The translations under genes and the position numbers were made by a program. The notes below the pieces were generated by a model. The model was not told where the DNA came from. It worked only from the letters and a program-made list of their open reading frames with translations, and made no database searches. A DNA stretch of 64,000 nucleotides, taken from Gemmatimonadota bacterium (lineage in GTDB: Bacteria > Gemmatimonadota > Gemmatimonadetes > Gemmatimonadales > GWC2-71-9). Positions within the stretch are counted from its first letter, which is position 1. Each line of letters starts with the position of its first letter. Below, piece by piece: positions 11,969-21,746 of this stretch. The DNA lies in NCBI GenBank assembly GCA_009692185.1, contig SHZT01000008.1:35910-99909 (forward strand), read 5' to 3'.

Positions 11969-13399
11969 CTAGAACTTGGACCAGAGGTACTGGTTGGTGA
12001 CCTCGTGGTGGAACTGGATCTCGGCGGACTTGACCATGGTGCCGAGCGCCTTGGGGCAGCGGTCCGCCTGCATCTGTTTCAGATCGGCGAACTTCCCGTG
12101 CACGTCCTCTCCCAGGGTTTCCTTGAGGAACACGCTGCCCTTGTACAGGCGTATCGCATCATAAATGTTGTCGGAAAGAAAGCGCGTGCGGCTGCGCTTG
12201 TTCTCGTCGCCTTCCTCGATCGGGCCCTCGAGGCCCGTCCGGAAGATCGTGTAGATCGCGAGGTACGGGTTCGCGTCGGGCGCGATCGAGCGCACCTCCA
12301 CCCGCTTCGACCGCTCGTTCCCCAAAGGAATTCGGATCATGGAGCCGCGGTCGATTGGCGACGCCTTGATCTGGTTGGGCGCCTCGAAATGCGGGTCCAG
12401 CCGGCGGTAGGCGTTCACGCTGGAGTTGAGCAGGAGGCAGATCTCCGCGCCGTTCGAGAGAATCCGCTGGATGAACTCCCATCCGCCCTTCGAGAGCTGG
12501 TCCTGGCCCTTTTCGTCCCAGAACAGGTTCTTCCCCTTCTGTGCGATGGACACGTTCGTGTGCATACCGTTGCCGTTGATGCCGGTCACCGGCTTGGGGA
12601 GGAAGCACGCGGTCATGTCCATCCGGGCCGCGACCTGCCGGGACAGCAGCTTGTAGAGCTGTACCTGGTCCGCGGCGATACAGGCCTCGGCGTACCCGTA
12701 GTTCATCTCGAATTGTGAAGGCGCCACCTCCGGGTGGTCCTTTTCGTTGGCGAACCCCATGGCGCGCTGCACTTCCGCCGCGGTGTCGATGAACAGCCGG
12801 AGGGCGTCGCCCGGGAGCGAGTGGTAGTAGCCGCCGGTCGAGATGAAATCGAACTGGTTGGTCTCGTGATAGCGGCGCTCGGCATCCCTGCCCTTGAACA
12901 GGAATCCTTCGATCTCGTTCGCCGCGAACATCACGGTGCCGTTCTTCTTGAAGAGCTGCTCGCCGTACTGCTTGAGCAGGGCCCGCATGTCGGCGGAGTA
13001 CGGCTGGCCGTCCCGTTCGAGGACATCGGCGAACACGAGCACCTTGCCGGGCCCGAACACGTCGGATGGCATCCAGTAGAAGGCCGGCCAGTCTACGCGC
13101 AGGCGCAGGTCCGACTCCTGCTGGCGCGAGAAGCCCCGAATGGACGATCCGTCGAAGGTCAGGTTGTCCACCGACTTGAGCAGGAATTTCTTGTCGTAGT
13201 CCAGCATGTGGAAGCGGCCCTCGAGATCCGTGAAGCAGACAGTCACCGCCTTGATCCGTTTCTCGGCGGCCAGGTACTTGAGCCGCTCCTCCTGGATCTT
13301 GTCGGGTGACACGCGATCGAGACGCTGCTGTTTCGCGGCGAGGTTCTTCTCTTCGAGCTCTTCGTAGGGGATTTCAAGGAAATCGCGCAGTTCGGTCAT
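11969..13399 (-). CDS. glnA: glutamine synthetase (type I-like)
   Basis: FDGSSIRGF, INGNGMHTNVSI, NSSVNAYRRLDPHFEAP, IRIPLGNERSKRVEVRSIAPDANPYLA. Confidence 0.85.
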   Translation of the reverse strand: MTELRDFLEIPYEELEEKNLAAKQQRLDRVSPDKIQEERLKYLAAEKRIKAVTVCFTDLEGRFHMLDYDKKFLLKSVDNLTFDGSSIRGFSRQQESDLRLRVDWPAFYWMPSDVFGPGKVLVFADVLERDGQPYSADMRALLKQYGEQLFKKNGTVMFAANEIEGFLFKGRDAERRYHETNQFDFISTGGYYHSLPGDALRLFIDTAAEVQRAMGFANEKDHPEVAPSQFEMNYGYAEACIAADQVQLYKLLSRQVAARMDMTACFLPKPVTGINGNGMHTNVSIAQKGKNLFWDEKGQDQLSKGGWEFIQRILSNGAEICLLLNSSVNAYRRLDPHFEAPNQIKASPIDRGSMIRIPLGNERSKRVEVRSIAPDANPYLAIYTIFRTGLEGPIEEGDENKRSRTRFLSDNIYDAIRLYKGSVFLKETLGEDVHGKFADLKQMQADRCPKALGTMVKSAEIQFHHEVTNQYLWSKF

Positions 13400-13579: not shown

Positions 13580-15019
13580 TTAGCGGACCGAGACCTTTGC
13601 TGGCGGCTTGGGAGCGCCGTCGGGTCCGTTGTCCCAGTCTTGCGCGTTGGAAACGTTGGGCAGGCCCCACTGGTGGCCGTTCCAGCCGCTGAAGCCTTCC
13701 ATGCGGAATCCCCACACGCCCGTGTGCATGTCGCTCACGACCATGAGGCCGTCCGCGTTCCGCACATCGATGCCCCAAGTGCCCGGCTCGCCGCCGGAAA
13801 GGCCCGCGCCCGCGGCGCCCTGCGCGTGCGGGCCATCGAACGTGTAGTAGTAGCCGACCGTGTACGGGTTCGTGGGATCCATCATGTTGAATACCTGGAG
13901 CCCATCCTCGTAGTCCGACACCATCACGTACGGCCAGCGGATCGCCACGTTGTGTGGCAGGCTGTTCCACTGGGGAATCCACGCGCCGATCGGGCGGTTG
14001 ATGTTCTTGACCGTCCCGTCGAGGCCGGGCTTCAGGTCGAAAATGCGCAGCGGCGCGTACTGGTACTCGGTCTCGACCACGGCGTAACGGCCCGTCGGGT
14101 CAACGACGAACGTGTGTGCGCGGCTGATGCCGGCGACGCCGGTCGCCGTGGTGAGGAGCTTGGGAGCCTTGAGGTCGGTGACGTCGTAGACCCAGAGGCC
14201 TCCGGCGCCCGCGCCGTAAAACACGTCCCGCTTGTTCGCCACGTCGTACTGGACGTAGAAGTCGTGATACGTCGCGTTGCGGCGCGCGGGCGTGGCAACG
14301 GCGGCTGCGCCCGGAGCCGGGGGACGCACCGGGCCGAGCATGGCGTCGTCGGCGTCGTTGGGCACGCGACCGACGAGCCAGCCGGCCGGGTCGCCACCGG
14401 CGACCACCTTGTCGATGTCGTAGACGTTGGCGAAGGAGCCGCTGCTCTGGGTGAAGAAGAGCGTCGCGCCGCTCGAGTGCTTGTAACCGAACGATTCGTG
14501 GAACCCGCCCAGGTTTTCCTTGTCGCGGATGCGGGCCACTTCCTTGACCTTCGACGTGTCGGGCAAGCCGGTGACGTCGTGGATGGTCGCGCCCAGGTCG
14601 TTGTCCGGGCCCCCGGCCTGGAATTGATAGGCGTTTGCGTAGTAGTAGCGGCCGTGCGTCTTGAAGTAGATGGGATTGAGCGAGCCCGCGCCGCGGTGCA
14701 GCTCGGCGTTCTCGATCCGCCACTCGTAAATCGTGTTCGCCTTCTTGGGATCCTTGATGCTGATGATGTCGAAGCCGGAGGGGATCATCCGCGCGATGAC
14801 ATACACGTAGGGCCGCGACAACTCCTGCTCGATCGCGATGTCCGCCGTGTGGCCGTCTCCACCAGCGCGCGGAATGTGAAACTGGATCTCCATGTTCTTG
14901 CTGCCGCCGGCCCGGGTTCCGGGAATCGGCTCGGCGCCGTAGGTCCCCTGCGCGAACGCCGGCGCTGTGCCGGCTGCCAGAAGGCCCAGGACCGCCGCAA
15001 TGGAAGACGCGCGACGCAT
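13580..15019 (-). CDS. secreted LVIVD-repeat beta-propeller protein, paralogue 1
   Basis: ATG 15019 lies 7 nt after AAGGAG. Signal peptide MRRASSIAAVLGLLAAGTAPAFAQ. Motifs: EQELSRPYVYV, AELHRG, FQAGGPDNDLGA, DVTGLPDT, IRWPYVMV, YEDGLQVFNMMDPTNP, GIDVRNADGLMVVSD, EGFSGWNGHQWGLPNVSNAQDWDNGP. Confidence 0.85.
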   Translation of the reverse strand: MRRASSIAAVLGLLAAGTAPAFAQGTYGAEPIPGTRAGGSKNMEIQFHIPRAGGDGHTADIAIEQELSRPYVYVIARMIPSGFDIISIKDPKKANTIYEWRIENAELHRGAGSLNPIYFKTHGRYYYANAYQFQAGGPDNDLGATIHDVTGLPDTSKVKEVARIRDKENLGGFHESFGYKHSSGATLFFTQSSGSFANVYDIDKVVAGGDPAGWLVGRVPNDADDAMLGPVRPPAPGAAAVATPARRNATYHDFYVQYDVANKRDVFYGAGAGGLWVYDVTDLKAPKLLTTATGVAGISRAHTFVVDPTGRYAVVETEYQYAPLRIFDLKPGLDGTVKNINRPIGAWIPQWNSLPHNVAIRWPYVMVSDYEDGLQVFNMMDPTNPYTVGYYYTFDGPHAQGAAGAGLSGGEPGTWGIDVRNADGLMVVSDMHTGVWGFRMEGFSGWNGHQWGLPNVSNAQDWDNGPDGAPKPPAKVSVR

Positions 15020-15111
15020 TTGCTTCTCCTTTGTGAAACGTCTGGTGAGGTTCAGGCACGGAAGACCGACCAAGTCAAACTATCGTCGGGCCCGTTGGAC
15101 GCAATGGGAGT

Positions 15112-15387
15112 TCAGCCCCCGGAAATGGCGGGCACCAGCGTCACTTCGTCTCCGTCCTTCACAATGGTATCGAGCCCGCCGCTGAACCGGATGTCCTCGT
15201 CGTTAAGGAAAATGTTAAGGAAGGGATGCGGTGCTCCCTGTTCATCCTTGATACGAGGTGCCAGTGCGGGGAACCGGTTCGCCACGCCGTTGATTACGTC
15301 GCGCACCGTGGAGGCGTCGAATTCGATAGCCCGCTGGTTGTCAGCCAGCCGGGAAAGCACCGTGGGCAAATGCAGCGTCACGCTCAT
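15112..15387 (-). CDS. MoaD/ThiS/CysO-type ubiquitin-like sulfur carrier protein
   Basis: 91 aa ending in ...FLNIFLNDEDIRFSGGLDTIVKDGDEVTLVPAISGG* (C-terminal Gly-Gly). Its start overlaps the upstream stop by 4 nt. Confidence 0.85.
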   Translation of the reverse strand: MSVTLHLPTVLSRLADNQRAIEFDASTVRDVINGVANRFPALAPRIKDEQGAPHPFLNIFLNDEDIRFSGGLDTIVKDGDEVTLVPAISGG

Positions 15388-16643
15388 GTCTGTCCCGCTT
15401 TCTCCACCAGTTCAGCGACTTGCTTGACCTTGGCGTCAATCAGGGGAATGTCCGGCAGGTCCGGACTCACCGCCTCGATGGTCTTGAGCCCGTTGCCGGT
15501 GATGCACAGTACCACTTCGTCTTTTTCCGTGAGGCGCCCGTTCTTCGCGAGCGCGAGCGCGCCCGCGACGACCACCCCACCAGCCGTCTCGGTAAAGACG
15601 CCGGCCGTTTCCGCCAGCAGGCGGATGCCCGCCACCAGGTCTGCGTCGGACACTCCCGCGACCCAGCCCCCCGTCGTCTTGATTGCCTGCGATGCGAACA
15701 GGCCGTCAGCCGGATTCCCAATGGCGATCGAGCGCGCGATGGTGTTCGGAATGACGGGCGTCACGCGGTCGGCGCCGGACTCCACCAGGTTGACGATCGG
15801 CGCGCACCCCGACGCCTGGGTGCCGTAGATCCGCGGCGGCGTTCCGCGGACGATTCCCGCCTTCAGGAACTCGCGGAACGCCTTTTCCAGCTTCGTGACC
15901 AGCGAGCCGCCGGCCATCGGCGCGACGACCGCGCTCGGAAGGCGCCAGCCTAGCTGCTCGGCGATTTCGAAACCGACGGTCTTCGATCCTTCGCCATAGT
16001 AGCCGCGCAAGTTCACGTTTACGATGCCCCAGCCGTACCGGTCGGCGAGCTGGGTGCAGAGCCGGTTCACGTCGTCATAGGTGCCGCGGACCCGGACGAG
16101 GTTGGGGCCGTACACGAGCGTCCCGATCACCTTGCCGACTTCGAGGTCGTGCGGAATGAAGATCCACGCCTTGAGGCCGGCGCGCGCGGCGTGCGCAGCC
16201 ACCGCGTTCGCGAGGTTGCCGGTCGAGGCGCAGCCCACCGTGTCGAGTCCCAGCGCGCGTGCCGCGTTCACGGCCGTCGCGACGACCCGGTCTTTGAAAG
16301 ACAGCGACGGATGGGAAACACTGTCGTTCTTGATCCACACACGGCCGACGCCGAGGCGTTGCGCGAGCGCCGGCGCTTCAAAGCACGGCGTGAACCCGGT
16401 GTCCAGTGAGAGCTCTGGCTCGCCGTTGAACGGCAGCCATTCATGGTAGCGCCAGAGGGAGCGTGCCCGTCCCGCAATCGTTTCGCGGTCCGGATACGCG
16501 CGGTCGGTGCCGTAGTCGGGGTCAAGCGGCCCCAGGCATTCCCCGCAAATGGCGTTGGCCTGCGGCTCGGCCGCCGTACCGCAGGCCCGGCACCGGAGCG
16601 GCAGGGCAGAGAGCTTCGAGTTCACTTGCGCTGGCGTTGCCAT
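15384..16643 (-). CDS. threonine synthase-like PLP enzyme with N-terminal zinc ribbon (candidate thiocarboxylate-dependent sulfhydrylase)
   Basis: LRCRACG...CGEC, then HPSLSFKDR (PLP lysine motif), ASTGNLANAVAAHAARAG, GNGLK. ATG 16643 is preferred over the 38-codon extension in the track. Confidence 0.8.
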   Translation of the reverse strand: MATPAQVNSKLSALPLRCRACGTAAEPQANAICGECLGPLDPDYGTDRAYPDRETIAGRARSLWRYHEWLPFNGEPELSLDTGFTPCFEAPALAQRLGVGRVWIKNDSVSHPSLSFKDRVVATAVNAARALGLDTVGCASTGNLANAVAAHAARAGLKAWIFIPHDLEVGKVIGTLVYGPNLVRVRGTYDDVNRLCTQLADRYGWGIVNVNLRGYYGEGSKTVGFEIAEQLGWRLPSAVVAPMAGGSLVTKLEKAFREFLKAGIVRGTPPRIYGTQASGCAPIVNLVESGADRVTPVIPNTIARSIAIGNPADGLFASQAIKTTGGWVAGVSDADLVAGIRLLAETAGVFTETAGGVVVAGALALAKNGRLTEKDEVVLCITGNGLKTIEAVSPDLPDIPLIDAKVKQVAELVEKAGQT

Positions 16644-16828
16644 GTTACGACCGACCCTCTCTCCAGGCCAGGTGTGCCGCGGGGACCACGGATGAAACGG
16701 ACGCAAAAAAAGCGGGGTAATGAGAAAGCCCGGGCTGAAGGAAAAGGCCGCGGGCATTCGCTTTTAGCGCGTTGTTTTACGTGGCGGCAATCTGCGGCAA
16801 ATCACCACGGGCCAACAATTGTAAGGGC

Positions 16829-16859
16829 ATCGTATCACTCGTGCCCCTGGCCTGTCAAG
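16829..16859 (-). promoter_or_regulatory. near-consensus sigma-70-type promoter ahead of the thrC-like/cysO-like operon
   Basis: Minus strand TTGACA (16859-16854) - 18 nt - TACGAT (16834-16829). This leaves a leader of about 175 nt before ATG 16643. Confidence 0.55.
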
Positions 16860-18314: not shown

Positions 18315-20239
18315 GTCTGCCCCGTGGTGCGTGCCCGGCGGTGGTAGAGATACGCGACGAGGAGCGACACGGTTCCGAGAATGAATATCGATCCGACGCG
18401 GTAGAGGGCATCGAGGCTCGAGAGATCCACCAGGAGGACTTTGGCGATAGCGAGCCCCGCGACGCCGAGGCCGGCAATGCGCGCCTGCTTGATGTTTCGC
18501 CGAAAGCCCAGGAGTACCAAGCCGCCCGCATAGACGGCCCACCACGCACTGATGGCGAGGCCGCTCCAGAGTTGGACCTCGAACAAGGCCCATCCGCGCT
18601 GTCCGAAGTATCGATTCAATTCGGCGGTGACGCCTATCAGGAGGAGGCCGCCGCTCGTGCTCCACAGGATGGACGGCATCATCGGCGCCCAGTGATTGCG
18701 CGCGCTTACCCAGCTATCGGTGAACGTGCGCGGCGGTTTGCCTTTCCGTTCGGACGCAGCTGTCCGGGACTCACCCGGCAGGCGCATCCACAACCCGCTG
18801 GCCAGGACGCCGGGAACGATGATGCAGAACCAGAGCGCGCCGGCCCATCCGTCCACGAACGCGGGGCCGCTTCCGCGGTCGACCAGCGTGCGGGCCAGGC
18901 TCCAGATGGCGAGGCCCAGCGTGCCCACCGCGTACCACCGTCCGTCGATGCGCGCCAGCCAGTGGTCGAGCCCTGCCCAGACCAAAGAAAGCCCGAGCAG
19001 AACGAAGACACCTTCGTGTCTTGGCCATTGGAGCATCGTGGCGAACGCCATGGCGGCGGCGCCGGCCAGGGCGAACGGATAGCGGGGCTTCTGGTAACCG
19101 GCAGCGAGATACGCGAGCCCCACGATGAACGGTGCGGCGGCGAGGTGCGCGTTGAACCACCGCGGCGCAATGGTGGAGATGGCCCATCCCAGGAGGATGG
19201 GCGTGACGTAGAACGGCACCGATTCGCCCACGGACCACGCGGCCTCGGATTCGCCCGTGACGCGGGGGTCAGGCCAGATGCGCGAGGTGCGCATCGCGTG
19301 CCACCACATGGGCGCCGTGAGCAGCACGCCAACGACGGGAACGAGCGGCGATGCGTATACCCGCACGCTCATCGCCAGCAGGCCCCAGCCGCCGAAGAAC
19401 GACAGCACCCGCGTTTCGGTCCAGCGCTCCCGCAGGCCGACCATGATCCCGGCCGCACCCATGGCCGCGAACAGGCATACGCGCCATGGCACGGCGCCTG
19501 ATCCCGCCGCCACGAGGCCAAGCCCGAAGAACGCTGCGGCGACCAGGAGCGTTGCCAGTCGCCACCGCTTGACGACGTTGGCCGCGCCCAGCGTCGAGCC
19601 GACGATCGCCAGGTACAAGAGCAGCGTGTTCGGGTTTCCGCGGGAGCCCATCACGACGGGCGCGAGGAAGGCACCCACGGCGGCCGCCGCCGCCAGCGCC
19701 TCCTCGTCGAGAATGAACGCCACCACGGCGAGCGCGAACGAGACCAGCGTCAGCGCGGTGAGGTCCTGGCCCTGGGGCACGAGTTGATAAATGCCGGCAG
19801 CCGCCCAGATGGCCAGGTAGATGATGCCGAACCCAAGGCCGATCACTGCCGCGCCGTACTGGCGGTACCTGGGGTGTAGCCGCCAGCCGATGGCCGCGCC
19901 GGTTGCACCGAGGACCACGCCGCCGATGCAGCGCATCGCCGGAGAAATCCAGCCGCGGTCGAACGCGACCTTCAGGAAAAAACCGACGGCGAGGATGATA
20001 AGGATGACGGCAGCCGCGAGGATGCCCCGCTGGCCGACCCACTCTTCCGTGCTCAACGCGGGTGGCGCGGGCGGTGTGGGCGCGGGCGGCGGTCCAATGG
20101 GCGCAGCCGGTGGGCGGGCCGGGCGCTCCGGTGCGGCGATGCGCGGAGGTTCCGCAGCCCGGGGTGCCCGATCGGGCACAAGCACTGCCCCTTCCACGCG
20201 CCGTTCGAGGGCGGCAAGGCGGCGTTCGAGATCGGCCAA
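18311..20239 (-). CDS. DUF2339-like polytopic membrane protein
   Basis: N-terminal coiled segment ADLERRLAALERRVE, Pro-rich linker, then ILAVGFFLKVAFDRGWISPAMR and about 18 predicted TM helices. TTG start. Confidence 0.65.
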   Translation of the reverse strand: MADLERRLAALERRVEGAVLVPDRAPRAAEPPRIAAPERPARPPAAPIGPPPAPTPPAPPALSTEEWVGQRGILAAAVILIILAVGFFLKVAFDRGWISPAMRCIGGVVLGATGAAIGWRLHPRYRQYGAAVIGLGFGIIYLAIWAAAGIYQLVPQGQDLTALTLVSFALAVVAFILDEEALAAAAAVGAFLAPVVMGSRGNPNTLLLYLAIVGSTLGAANVVKRWRLATLLVAAAFFGLGLVAAGSGAVPWRVCLFAAMGAAGIMVGLRERWTETRVLSFFGGWGLLAMSVRVYASPLVPVVGVLLTAPMWWHAMRTSRIWPDPRVTGESEAAWSVGESVPFYVTPILLGWAISTIAPRWFNAHLAAAPFIVGLAYLAAGYQKPRYPFALAGAAAMAFATMLQWPRHEGVFVLLGLSLVWAGLDHWLARIDGRWYAVGTLGLAIWSLARTLVDRGSGPAFVDGWAGALWFCIIVPGVLASGLWMRLPGESRTAASERKGKPPRTFTDSWVSARNHWAPMMPSILWSTSGGLLLIGVTAELNRYFGQRGWALFEVQLWSGLAISAWWAVYAGGLVLLGFRRNIKQARIAGLGVAGLAIAKVLLVDLSSLDALYRVGSIFILGTVSLLVAYLYHRRARTTGQT

Positions 20240-20316
20240 ACGATCTTCGGGTTCCGTGGATCCTCGCTCGGAGAGCCGGACCAGAATGTGCTACCCGGGC
20301 TGCGTCGAGTCCAGCC

Positions 20317-20346
20317 TTGACGGGCCAAACGCCAGAGGGGTATATG
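20317..20346 (+). promoter_or_regulatory. candidate sigma-70-type promoter of LVIVD-2
   Basis: TTGACG - 18 nt - TATATG, 39 nt upstream of ATG 20385. Confidence 0.35.
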
Positions 20347-20384
20347 CCGGGGGTTCGGCATCGGTCTCCCTACCCGGAGGATTC

Positions 20385-21746
20385 ATGAAACGTGCCCCAT
20401 GGCTGTCCGCGGTCGTTTGTGTCCTGGTGACGGGACCCCTTTGGGCCCAGGGACGCGTGCCCGACGCGCCGATCGCGAAGACCGGTGGAAGCCCCAACAT
20501 CAAGATGCTGGGTCACCTCCCGATGGACGGCTACTTCTCCATCGGCGGGGTGGACGTCGAGCAGGAGTTGTCGCGCCCGTATGTCTACATCTCGGGCATG
20601 AACGACAAGGCCGGGTTCACGATTGTCCGGGTGTCGGACCCGTCCAAGCCATCGGTCGTCTATCAGTGGCAGTATCCGATGCAGGAGAAGGACGGTGGCC
20701 TGGGTGGTGAGAACGGCCGCTACTTCAAGCTGAACGGGCGGTACTACTACGCGAAGACGGTCCAGTTCAACGCGTCGAGCCCGAGCGACTCGCTCGGTCT
20801 CATCATCTTCGACGTCACCGGGCTCCCCAACCCGGCGACGGTGAAGCAGGTCGCCCACATCGGCCGGTTCGGCGCGCGGGTCGTCCATGTGTTCCCGTAC
20901 AAGCACTCCGACGGCCGACTCCTCCTGATCACCACGCCGACGGTGGGTACGTTCGCCCAGATCTTCGACGCGGCGAAGCTCATAGCGGGGGCGCCGGCCG
21001 AGGAGGCGTTCATCGGCAAGGTCGGGATACCCGAAGAGGTGAATCTCAAGACGTTCGGGCGGGCGTATCACGACTCATATGCGGCCTACGACCCGGTGAC
21101 CCGGCAGGACAAGTTCTACGGCGCCGGCACCGGTGGATTTCACGTATACGACATCACCCGGCCCCAGGATGCCAAACACCTCTTCACCATGACGGGAGGC
21201 GGCGGCGTCATCGCCGGCGGCCATACCGTCATCGCGAGCCCCGACGGCCGCTATGCGGTCGGCACCACCGAGCGGCAGTACTGGCCGGTGTTCGTGTGGG
21301 ACCTCAAGGACGCCGTCGAGGGAAAGACCCGGATGGTTTCGTCGCCGGCGGGCGCGTGGACTGCCGATTGGCGTGATGCCGCGCATATCGTGGAACTGCG
21401 GTGGCCGTACGCATTCGTAGCGTCGTTCGAAGACGGTCTCCAGGTGTTCAACCTGTTCAACCCGAAGGAACCGAAGTCCGAGGGCTGGTACTACACGTGC
21501 CGGTGCGCGCACCAGGCAGGCTGGGCCGGGTCGGTGACGAATCCGGGCACGTCGGTATTGAACGGTGCGGCTGACGTGGATGTGCGAAACGCAGATGGCC
21601 TGATCGTGATGACCGACTACTCCAGTGGCCTGTGGCTTTTTCACCTCGAGGGGTTCGACGGCTGGAATGGCAAGCAGTGGCGCCAGCCCAACATCTCCAC
21701 GGAGCAGGACTGGGACCGCGGACCGCCGACGACACCGATACCCTGA
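20385..21746 (+). CDS. secreted LVIVD-repeat beta-propeller protein, paralogue 2
   Basis: GGAGG RBS. MKRAPWLSAVVCVLVTGPLWAQ. Motifs: EQELSRPYVYI, DVTGLPNP, YKHSDGRLLL, HTVIASPDGRYA, LRWPYAFV, FEDGLQVFNLFNP, DVRNADGLIVMTD, EGFDGWNGKQWRQPNISTEQDWDRGP. The track ORF from 19821 is an antisense extension. Confidence 0.85.
   Translation: MKRAPWLSAVVCVLVTGPLWAQGRVPDAPIAKTGGSPNIKMLGHLPMDGYFSIGGVDVEQELSRPYVYISGMNDKAGFTIVRVSDPSKPSVVYQWQYPMQEKDGGLGGENGRYFKLNGRYYYAKTVQFNASSPSDSLGLIIFDVTGLPNPATVKQVAHIGRFGARVVHVFPYKHSDGRLLLITTPTVGTFAQIFDAAKLIAGAPAEEAFIGKVGIPEEVNLKTFGRAYHDSYAAYDPVTRQDKFYGAGTGGFHVYDITRPQDAKHLFTMTGGGGVIAGGHTVIASPDGRYAVGTTERQYWPVFVWDLKDAVEGKTRMVSSPAGAWTADWRDAAHIVELRWPYAFVASFEDGLQVFNLFNPKEPKSEGWYYTCRCAHQAGWAGSVTNPGTSVLNGAADVDVRNADGLIVMTDYSSGLWLFHLEGFDGWNGKQWRQPNISTEQDWDRGPPTTPIP

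Follow-up and report, generated by a model that had tools for sequence, protein, structure and literature searches.

A threonine synthase-like gene overlapping a sulfur carrier gene in Gemmatimonadota: a probable SAM-II-controlled metM-metO operon for homocysteine synthesis

The Gene Pair and Its Leader

Here, we describe two overlapping genes in a 64-kb stretch of DNA from a Gemmatimonadota bacterium (positions 35910-99909 of contig SHZT01000008.1, C17 in our numbering; the whole stretch is called the window below). The window belongs to a 2.63-Mb assembly of 30 contigs with a completeness of 99.94%, and close relatives of the source genome are Gemmatimonadales metagenome-assembled genomes. 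The first gene encodes an enzyme of the threonine synthase (ThrC) fold that depends on pyridoxal 5'-phosphate (PLP), the second a small sulfur carrier, and the pair is preceded by a promoter of its own and by a predicted S-adenosylmethionine (SAM) riboswitch of class SAM-II (Table 1). We propose, with a probability of about 0.85, that the two genes form a metM-metO operon which serves homocysteine synthesis under SAM-II control.

Both proteins are as a preliminary description of this DNA had read them. The carrier, which is ubiquitin-like, ends in VPAISGG, and the enzyme, translated from the ATG at 16643 (MATPAQ...), carries the four ribbon cysteines as CRAC-x12-CGEC together with the motif SFKDR. 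The two genes overlap by 4 nt: tcat on the plus strand at 15384-15387 is ATGA on the minus strand, with the carrier ATG sharing the TGA of the enzyme gene. A longer reading of the enzyme (457 aa from the ATG at 16757, in an open reading frame at 15384-16757 on the minus strand that adds 38 codons) was dropped because this ATG lies inside the aptamer and the additional residues are of low complexity; it is probably not translated.

Table 1. Features of the window and related genes elsewhere in the source genome (contig number before the colon).
Feature	Position	Strand	Basis
Sigma-70-like promoter, TTGACA-18 nt (with TG)-TACGAT	16829-16858	minus	10 of 12 hexamer matches
Predicted SAM-II (SAM_alpha, RF00521) riboswitch aptamer	16745-16818	minus	41.3 bits against a gathering threshold of 36; full model 1-79
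Terminator-like GC hairpin and U-rich tract, probable expression platform	16719-16755	minus	read from the sequence
metM-like gene, 419-aa ThrC-fold PLP enzyme with N-terminal Cys4 ribbon	15384-16643	minus	profiles, tree, residues
metO-like gene, 91-aa ThiS/MoaD/CysO-type beta-grasp carrier ending in Gly-Gly	15112-15387	minus	
Large open reading frame	13580-15073	minus	weak LVIVD / choice-of-anchor B matches
Large open reading frame	19821-21746	plus	weak LVIVD / choice-of-anchor B matches
Glutamine-synthetase-family gene	11969-13399	minus	both Gln-synt domains; 245 bits against a GlnA equivalog cut-off of 429
SAM-II element of the metH leader	C5:81828-81900		
metH, then bifunctional homocysteine S-methyltransferase/methylenetetrahydrofolate reductase gene	C5:81980-88000		PRK08645, 728 bits (second gene)
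thrB (homoserine kinase)	C5:140877-141644		169 bits (cut-off 168)
cysM-like, JAMM (Mec-like) and CysO-like cluster	C3:246159-247860 (L021:1166-2869)	minus	
PRK08197-type ThrC paralogue	C7:14082-15044 (L003:1339-2484)	plus (in L003)	NF006050, 507 bits (cut-off 303)

The Enzyme Is Distinct From Housekeeping Threonine Synthases

In profile searches, the enzyme matches the Pfam family PALP (1e-63). Its top models are all thrC, with the model for cysteine synthase A (CysK family) reaching only about 30 bits, and its matches to solved ThrC structures have E-values of 1e-46 to 1e-50. An ordinary second threonine synthase, next to a carrier that serves molybdopterin, thiamine or tRNA thiolation, would be in line with a score above the cut-off of the thrC equivalog TIGR00260 and with the database names of the relatives, which are all "threonine synthase". 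However, this explanation is at odds with the phylogeny. In a tree of 51 rows (IQ-TREE, LG+C20), the MetM-like sequences, including the window enzyme and a homolog from Nonomuraea gerenzanensis, form one clade (branch length 1.42; support of 100 in the Shimodaira-Hasegawa-like approximate likelihood ratio test, SH-aLRT). The annotated hom-thrC-thrB genes of Listeria, S. aureus and Priestia form a separate ThrC clade together with the thrC of Nonomuraea and a paralogue from the source genome that is linked to the homoserine dehydrogenase gene (hom). A third clade, apart from both, holds the PRK08197-type paralogue of the same genome. With the long outgroups removed, each of the three groups is split from all other sequences by a single branch. 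The approximately unbiased (AU) test, for which the ThrC group was defined after the first tree had been viewed, rejects a grouping of the window enzyme with ThrC (delta log-likelihood 64.8, p 8e-10). The preliminary description had named two findings that would speak for a housekeeping enzyme, tight clustering with such threonine synthases and the absence of any other thrC. Neither was obtained: the enzyme falls in a clade of its own, and the genome encodes three ThrC-family genes, namely that of the window, one directly downstream of hom and the PRK08197-type paralogue. The last of these encodes 381 aa, adjoins uvrC and groups with acidobacterial homologs (L116, L117).

The MetM-like clade also differs from ThrC in its residues: at 22 positions, one residue is kept in 90% or more of the clade and a different one is conserved in ThrC. 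Using the equivalence to T. thermophilus ThrC given by a PDB alignment (1UIM), the PLP lysine Lys61 is retained as K117, while T88, S155, N157, R160 and Q164 correspond to L144, N211, R213, Y216 and S220 in the window enzyme. Conservation in the MetM-like clade is 99% or higher for each of L144, N211 and Y216, and the T, S and R are conserved to 80-100% in the ThrC clade. In ThrC, T88, S155 and R160 (T. thermophilus numbering) are residues that we take to line the phosphate site. Since all three are replaced, the pocket that would steer the reaction after phosphate elimination appears to be remodeled, which may alter its function relative to ThrC. The ribbon cysteines C18, C21, C33 and C36 are 94-100% conserved in the clade.

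Further evidence bears on the role of a second threonine synthase. ThiS and MoaD are encoded separately in this genome, with MoaD beside moaE, a hom-linked thrC is available elsewhere, the pairing with the carrier is conserved and the starts are translationally coupled, and control by SAM would be senseless for threonine synthesis. We therefore regard a second threonine synthase as very improbable. The window enzyme is better described as a ThrC-fold PLP enzyme that retains the PLP lysine and is predicted to be distinct from housekeeping ThrC. It resembles the latter (T. thermophilus, 1UIM; B. subtilis, 6CGQ) in fold, PLP lysine and presumably in the substrate O-phosphohomoserine. It differs by its separate clade, the N-terminal Cys4 ribbon, the coupling to a carrier, the predicted SAM control, the replacement of the T88, S155 and R160 equivalents by L, N and Y, and a new arginine at the N157 position.

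The Sulfur Carrier

The carrier matches the Pfam family ThiS (2e-13), with SAMP1 and MoaD matches of NCBIfam below threshold. The preliminary description had allowed for a small protein that lacks the beta-grasp fold. The AlphaFold2 model, built on a 46-sequence alignment, has the beta-grasp arrangement (mean predicted local distance difference test score, pLDDT, 92.8; predicted template modeling score, pTM, 0.84). The top Foldseek matches are CysO of M. tuberculosis (3DWG_C, TM score 0.86, 40% identity) and of Amycolatopsis (4N6E_B, TM score 0.89), and the sequence matches agree.

The closeness of the carrier to CysO proteins, its nearest solved relatives by both sequence and fold, would favor a CysM/CysO-type system that makes cysteine from O-phosphoserine and a carrier thiocarboxylate as in Mycobacterium tuberculosis. 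This was one of two precedents offered by the preliminary description, the other being MetM/MetO. The enzyme, however, is of the ThrC family and not of the CysK/CysM family. Moreover, the genome already holds a cysM-JAMM-cysO cluster on another contig, whose CysO-like carrier shares just 30% identity with that of the window. The SAM riboswitches that precede this gene pair in different phyla indicate methionine, and homoserine kinase genes are co-operonic in relatives. Because of the separate cluster and the SAM control of the pair, cysteine synthesis by a CysO-CysM system is highly unlikely here, and of the two precedents the evidence favors MetM/MetO. By analogy, the pair would still share with the M. 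tuberculosis CysO-CysM-Mec system (PDB 3DWG) the principle of a beta-grasp thiocarboxylate carrier that feeds a fold-type II PLP enzyme with a phosphorylated amino-acid substrate, but the window enzyme is of the ThrC subfamily and SAM-regulated, in a genome with its own cysM-mec-cysO cluster.

The C-terminus of the carrier was compared across 72 read-outs, taken from the 80 related loci described below plus Nonomuraea. An (I/V)(A/S)GG motif stands at the C-terminus or close to it in all but two or three. Nothing follows GG in 37 of the 72, among them the window carrier and all Gemmatimonadota; the majority of the remainder, chiefly from Acidobacteriota, carry short extensions beyond GG. As the native C-terminus of the window carrier is GG, it probably needs no protease or Mec-type trimming. 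Many acidobacterial homologs (for example L094, L103, L053, L093 and L095) continue for 1 to about 20 residues past the motif, and a few of these tails are cysteine-rich, for example ...GGSQCSGRGYCGREECCCA. Such extended carriers would have to be trimmed by a protease, or they serve another role.

A Predicted SAM-II Riboswitch in the Leader

The SAM-II aptamer is the sole Rfam family above threshold in the entire window. The preliminary description had proposed a candidate riboswitch in the leader; this holds according to Rfam, but the class, SAM-II, had not been recognized. The promoter is the single match of its kind in 2.4 kb (mean of 0.2 in shuffled sequence) and is separated from the aptamer by a gap of about 10 nt. 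The aptamer core is kept in 13 orthologous Gemmatimonadota leaders. The element is thus a predicted SAM-II riboswitch by its covariance score above the gathering threshold and its conserved position upstream of methionine genes.

Directly after the aptamer lies a GC hairpin (GCCCGCGG / CCCGGGC, 16755-16728) with the U-rich tract UUUCUCAUU behind it, and a further U7 run is found at 16705-16711. Most of the 13 related Gemmatimonadota leaders likewise have a GC hairpin and U tract after the aptamer, as does the metH leader of the source genome. This recurrence makes a platform of the terminator type likely. The hairpin was not reported by a consensus terminator scan of the leader, and the whole leader, folded to minimum free energy, is no stabler than shuffled sequence (z = -0.56). 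Since neither supports the platform, we treat it as inferred. Judging from these elements, SAM would shut the operon down, most likely via the terminator-like hairpin after the aptamer.

The source genome contains exactly two SAM-II elements, one in the leader of the metM-like gene and one 80 nt upstream of metH, where a clear terminator hairpin is present. metH is followed by a bifunctional homocysteine S-methyltransferase/methylenetetrahydrofolate reductase gene. Because the sole other SAM-II element precedes metH, the SAM regulon would comprise the gene pair and the homocysteine-methylating genes.

Methionine, Cysteine and Carrier Genes of the Genome

The window holds no E1-like activating enzyme and no JAMM protease, as the preliminary description had stated. 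Both are encoded elsewhere in the genome, as are further thrC-family genes. The single ThiF-family E1 (394 aa) is MoeZ/MoeB-like, with 503 bits for the MoeZ model and a rhodanese domain at its C-terminus. The one clear JAMM gene lies inside the cysM-cysO cluster. There are four ThiS-family carriers, namely ThiS, MoaD (beside MoaE), the CysO-like protein and the window carrier. The genome would thus hold two thiocarboxylate-dependent amino-acid systems and one ThiF-family E1.

No MetX, MetA or MetE was found in the genome, which is 99.94% complete. MetH is present, as is thrB, whose score lies just above the cut-off (Table 1). The genome also encodes two PLP enzymes of the Cys/Met gamma family and a CBS-like gene.

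Related Loci Across Phyla

We collected 80 related loci (49-75% identity) from Gemmatimonadota, Acidobacteriota, Planctomycetota, Verrucomicrobiota, Nitrospirota, Methylomirabilota and others, more than ten phyla altogether. In 71 of the 80 loci, tblastn detects a carrier homolog close to the enzyme gene, most often directly downstream. Nine loci gave no carrier match, and in two of them the sequence stops at the enzyme gene. Among 20 Gemmatimonadota loci scanned with Rfam, 13 have a SAM-II element upstream on the same strand. Of 20 loci from other phyla, 13 have SAM-I and one has SAM-II. Hence, a SAM riboswitch of one or the other class precedes the gene in 27 of the 40 scanned loci. In a Blastocatellia locus (L087:2486-2760), SAM-II and a terminator are followed by another SAM-II-like sequence, which has a terminator as well and precedes the metM-like gene. 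This leader may be a tandem riboswitch; the first copy passed the Rfam threshold and the second stayed below it.

In several Gemmatimonadota, the riboswitch-led operon contains hom or panB, then the metM-like gene, thrB, the metO-like gene and moeZ, so that thrB sits between metM and metO. An alternative order in this phylum is aminotransferase, metO-like, moeZ, metM-like. The makeup of these operons fits the proposed route, in which the substrate would come from homoserine kinase and the carrier would be activated by MoeZ. In two loci (L031:2045-2923, L040:1682-2980), panB, encoding ketopantoate hydroxymethyltransferase, comes first after SAM-II and ahead of metM, and in L033 an aspartate-aminotransferase-like gene takes its place; neither has an obvious link to methionine.

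A link to actinomycetes is provided by Nonomuraea gerenzanensis. A tblastn search of PLSDB matched only this organism and a haloarchaeon. The Nonomuraea homolog, on an 11.85-Mb record, is 46% identical to the window enzyme and has SAM-I directly upstream and a 91-aa open reading frame ending in GG directly downstream, which is 34% identical to the window carrier (76 bits). In a protein search, the window enzyme matched Gemmatimonadota only. A protein search with the Nonomuraea homolog returned Streptosporangiales only, and a look-up of representatives and clusters gave Micromonosporaceae and no Streptomyces. Every named relative found here in public data is labeled threonine synthase.

A Proposed Route to Homocysteine

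The MetM/MetO route, which operates with MoeZ and Mec and leads from O-phospho-L-homoserine to homocysteine, was reported for Streptomyces albulus (Hasebe, Adachi, Maruyama and Hamano, 2024, Appl Environ Microbiol 90:e01247-24, as summarized in PMC13759103 and PMC12172450). The preliminary description had presented this pair as a threonine synthase homolog that uses O-phosphohomoserine and a carrier thiocarboxylate to give homocysteine, which is correct according to the same summaries. Secondary sources place a SAM riboswitch upstream of S. albulus metM and the carrier gene adjacent to it. GapMind (2026) lists MetO, Mec, MoeZ and MetM and describes MetM as often misannotated as threonine synthase.

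Modeling the mechanism on the S. albulus system and on the gene content of the source genome, we suggest the following steps. Homoserine kinase (ThrB), encoded outside the window, would provide O-phospho-L-homoserine. The single MoeZ-type E1 with its rhodanese domain would adenylate the Gly-Gly C-terminus of MetO and convert it to the thiocarboxylate. MetM would then eliminate phosphate from O-phosphohomoserine and add the sulfur of the MetO thiocarboxylate at C-gamma, yielding homocysteine, which MetH, under the other SAM-II element, would methylate to methionine. Sequence features, riboswitch match, clade placement, gene neighborhoods and genome content are direct observations on this DNA and its relatives, whereas substrate, product, use of the carrier and direction of regulation are deduced from them.

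The locus resembles the S. albulus system in several respects: a PLP enzyme homologous to ThrC lies beside a carrier of the ThiS/MoaD type, a SAM riboswitch precedes the pair, the genome encodes a homoserine kinase and an E1 of the MoeZ type that has a rhodanese domain, and databases call the enzyme threonine synthase. The order of SAM-I, enzyme and carrier genes in Nonomuraea likewise resembles the S. albulus arrangement. An identity of 46% between the window enzyme and the Nonomuraea homolog seems typical between phyla, as S. albulus MetM and a cyanobacterial homolog are reported to share 51.6%. Several differences are apparent. The riboswitch of the window is SAM-II, whereas that of Nonomuraea, our proxy for the actinomycete MetM/MetO systems, is SAM-I, and the phylum is Gemmatimonadota. 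Unlike in S. albulus, the window carrier natively ends in GG, and Mec-type trimming should be unneeded. The unit is a minimal one of two genes, with moeZ and thrB unlinked, whereas they are linked in related Gemmatimonadota. Finally, the genome also has a CysO/CysM system apart from the pair, which would draw on the single E1 as well.

A further system for comparison is the protein-thiocarboxylate methionine pathway of Wolinella succinogenes, in which HcyS and MetY are said to act (work attributed to Krishnamoorthy and Begley). There, too, a ThiS-like thiocarboxylate would be the sulfur donor for homocysteine. The acceptor enzyme in W. succinogenes is a MetY-type O-acetylhomoserine sulfhydrylase, whereas here it would be a ThrC homolog, in a genome in which no homoserine acyltransferase was found.

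A number of observations weigh against a metM-metO operon for homocysteine synthesis. The enzyme exceeds the cut-off of the NCBIfam thrC equivalog TIGR00260 (242.8 bits, cut-off 167.1). MetM may not be the sole route to homocysteine, because the two Cys/Met gamma-family enzymes of the genome could in principle use O-phosphohomoserine. The U tract after the leader hairpin is degenerate. The likeness to S. albulus MetM (A0A059WBP2) was assessed via the Nonomuraea proxy and secondary descriptions, and one study of a cyanobacterial homolog reportedly saw no clear MetM activity in vivo. Lastly, MetM and MetX are not strictly complementary: in a distribution sample of 81 genomes of the phylum, each at least 90% complete and one of them unpublished (G056), MetM-like proteins occur in 21, MetX-like proteins in 38 and both in seven, so that seven of the 21 MetM-positive genomes also have a MetX-like match. 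We did not use this distribution as support, and no claim made here rests on G056.

The enzyme might also be MetM-like without using the carrier for homocysteine. It could act on free sulfide or make another gamma-substituted sulfur compound, comparable to thiosugar synthesis by BexX/CysO. The function of the window enzyme is deduced from sequence, its pocket differs from that of ThrC, and the cyanobacterial homolog reportedly gave ambiguous products with sulfide, all of which leave some room for this explanation. Yet the SAM control that the pair shares with metH, the lack of MetX and MetA in the genome and the co-operonic thrB and moeZ of relatives agree with homocysteine synthesis by way of the carrier, and no secondary-metabolite genes flank the pair. 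We consider a carrier-independent reaction or another product improbable, and the metM-metO operon for homocysteine synthesis accounts for the locus best.

In a broader view, the lineage may route sulfur into cysteine (by CysO) and into homocysteine (by MetO) only by protein thiocarboxylates, with one MoeZ-type E1 serving ThiS, MoaD, CysO and MetO, no sulfide-consuming synthase of the CysK or MetY type, and SAM-II acting by transcription termination and not by hiding a ribosome-binding site. Taken jointly, these propositions are tentative and rather doubtful.

Neighboring Genes

The large open reading frame on the minus strand of the window (Table 1) begins 38 nt downstream of the stop of the metO-like gene. 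Farther downstream, the glutamine-synthetase-family gene has both domains and scores well below the GlnA equivalog cut-off; it may be a glutamine synthetase-like paralogue.

Implications

The "threonine synthase" gene and its overlapping carrier gene are most likely the Gemmatimonadota copy of the Streptomyces MetM/MetO pair, as judged from the features described above. The pathway as such was published in 2024 and is included in GapMind in 2026; the present finding adds breadth and no new principle. The assignment would correct a systematic misannotation of the relatives as threonine synthase and fill the homocysteine step of a Gemmatimonadota genome without homoserine acyltransferases. Moreover, one gene pair is found under two unrelated classes of SAM riboswitch in different phyla. 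As these two classes provide independent regulatory evidence, the MetM/MetO route appears to be widespread well beyond Streptomyces.

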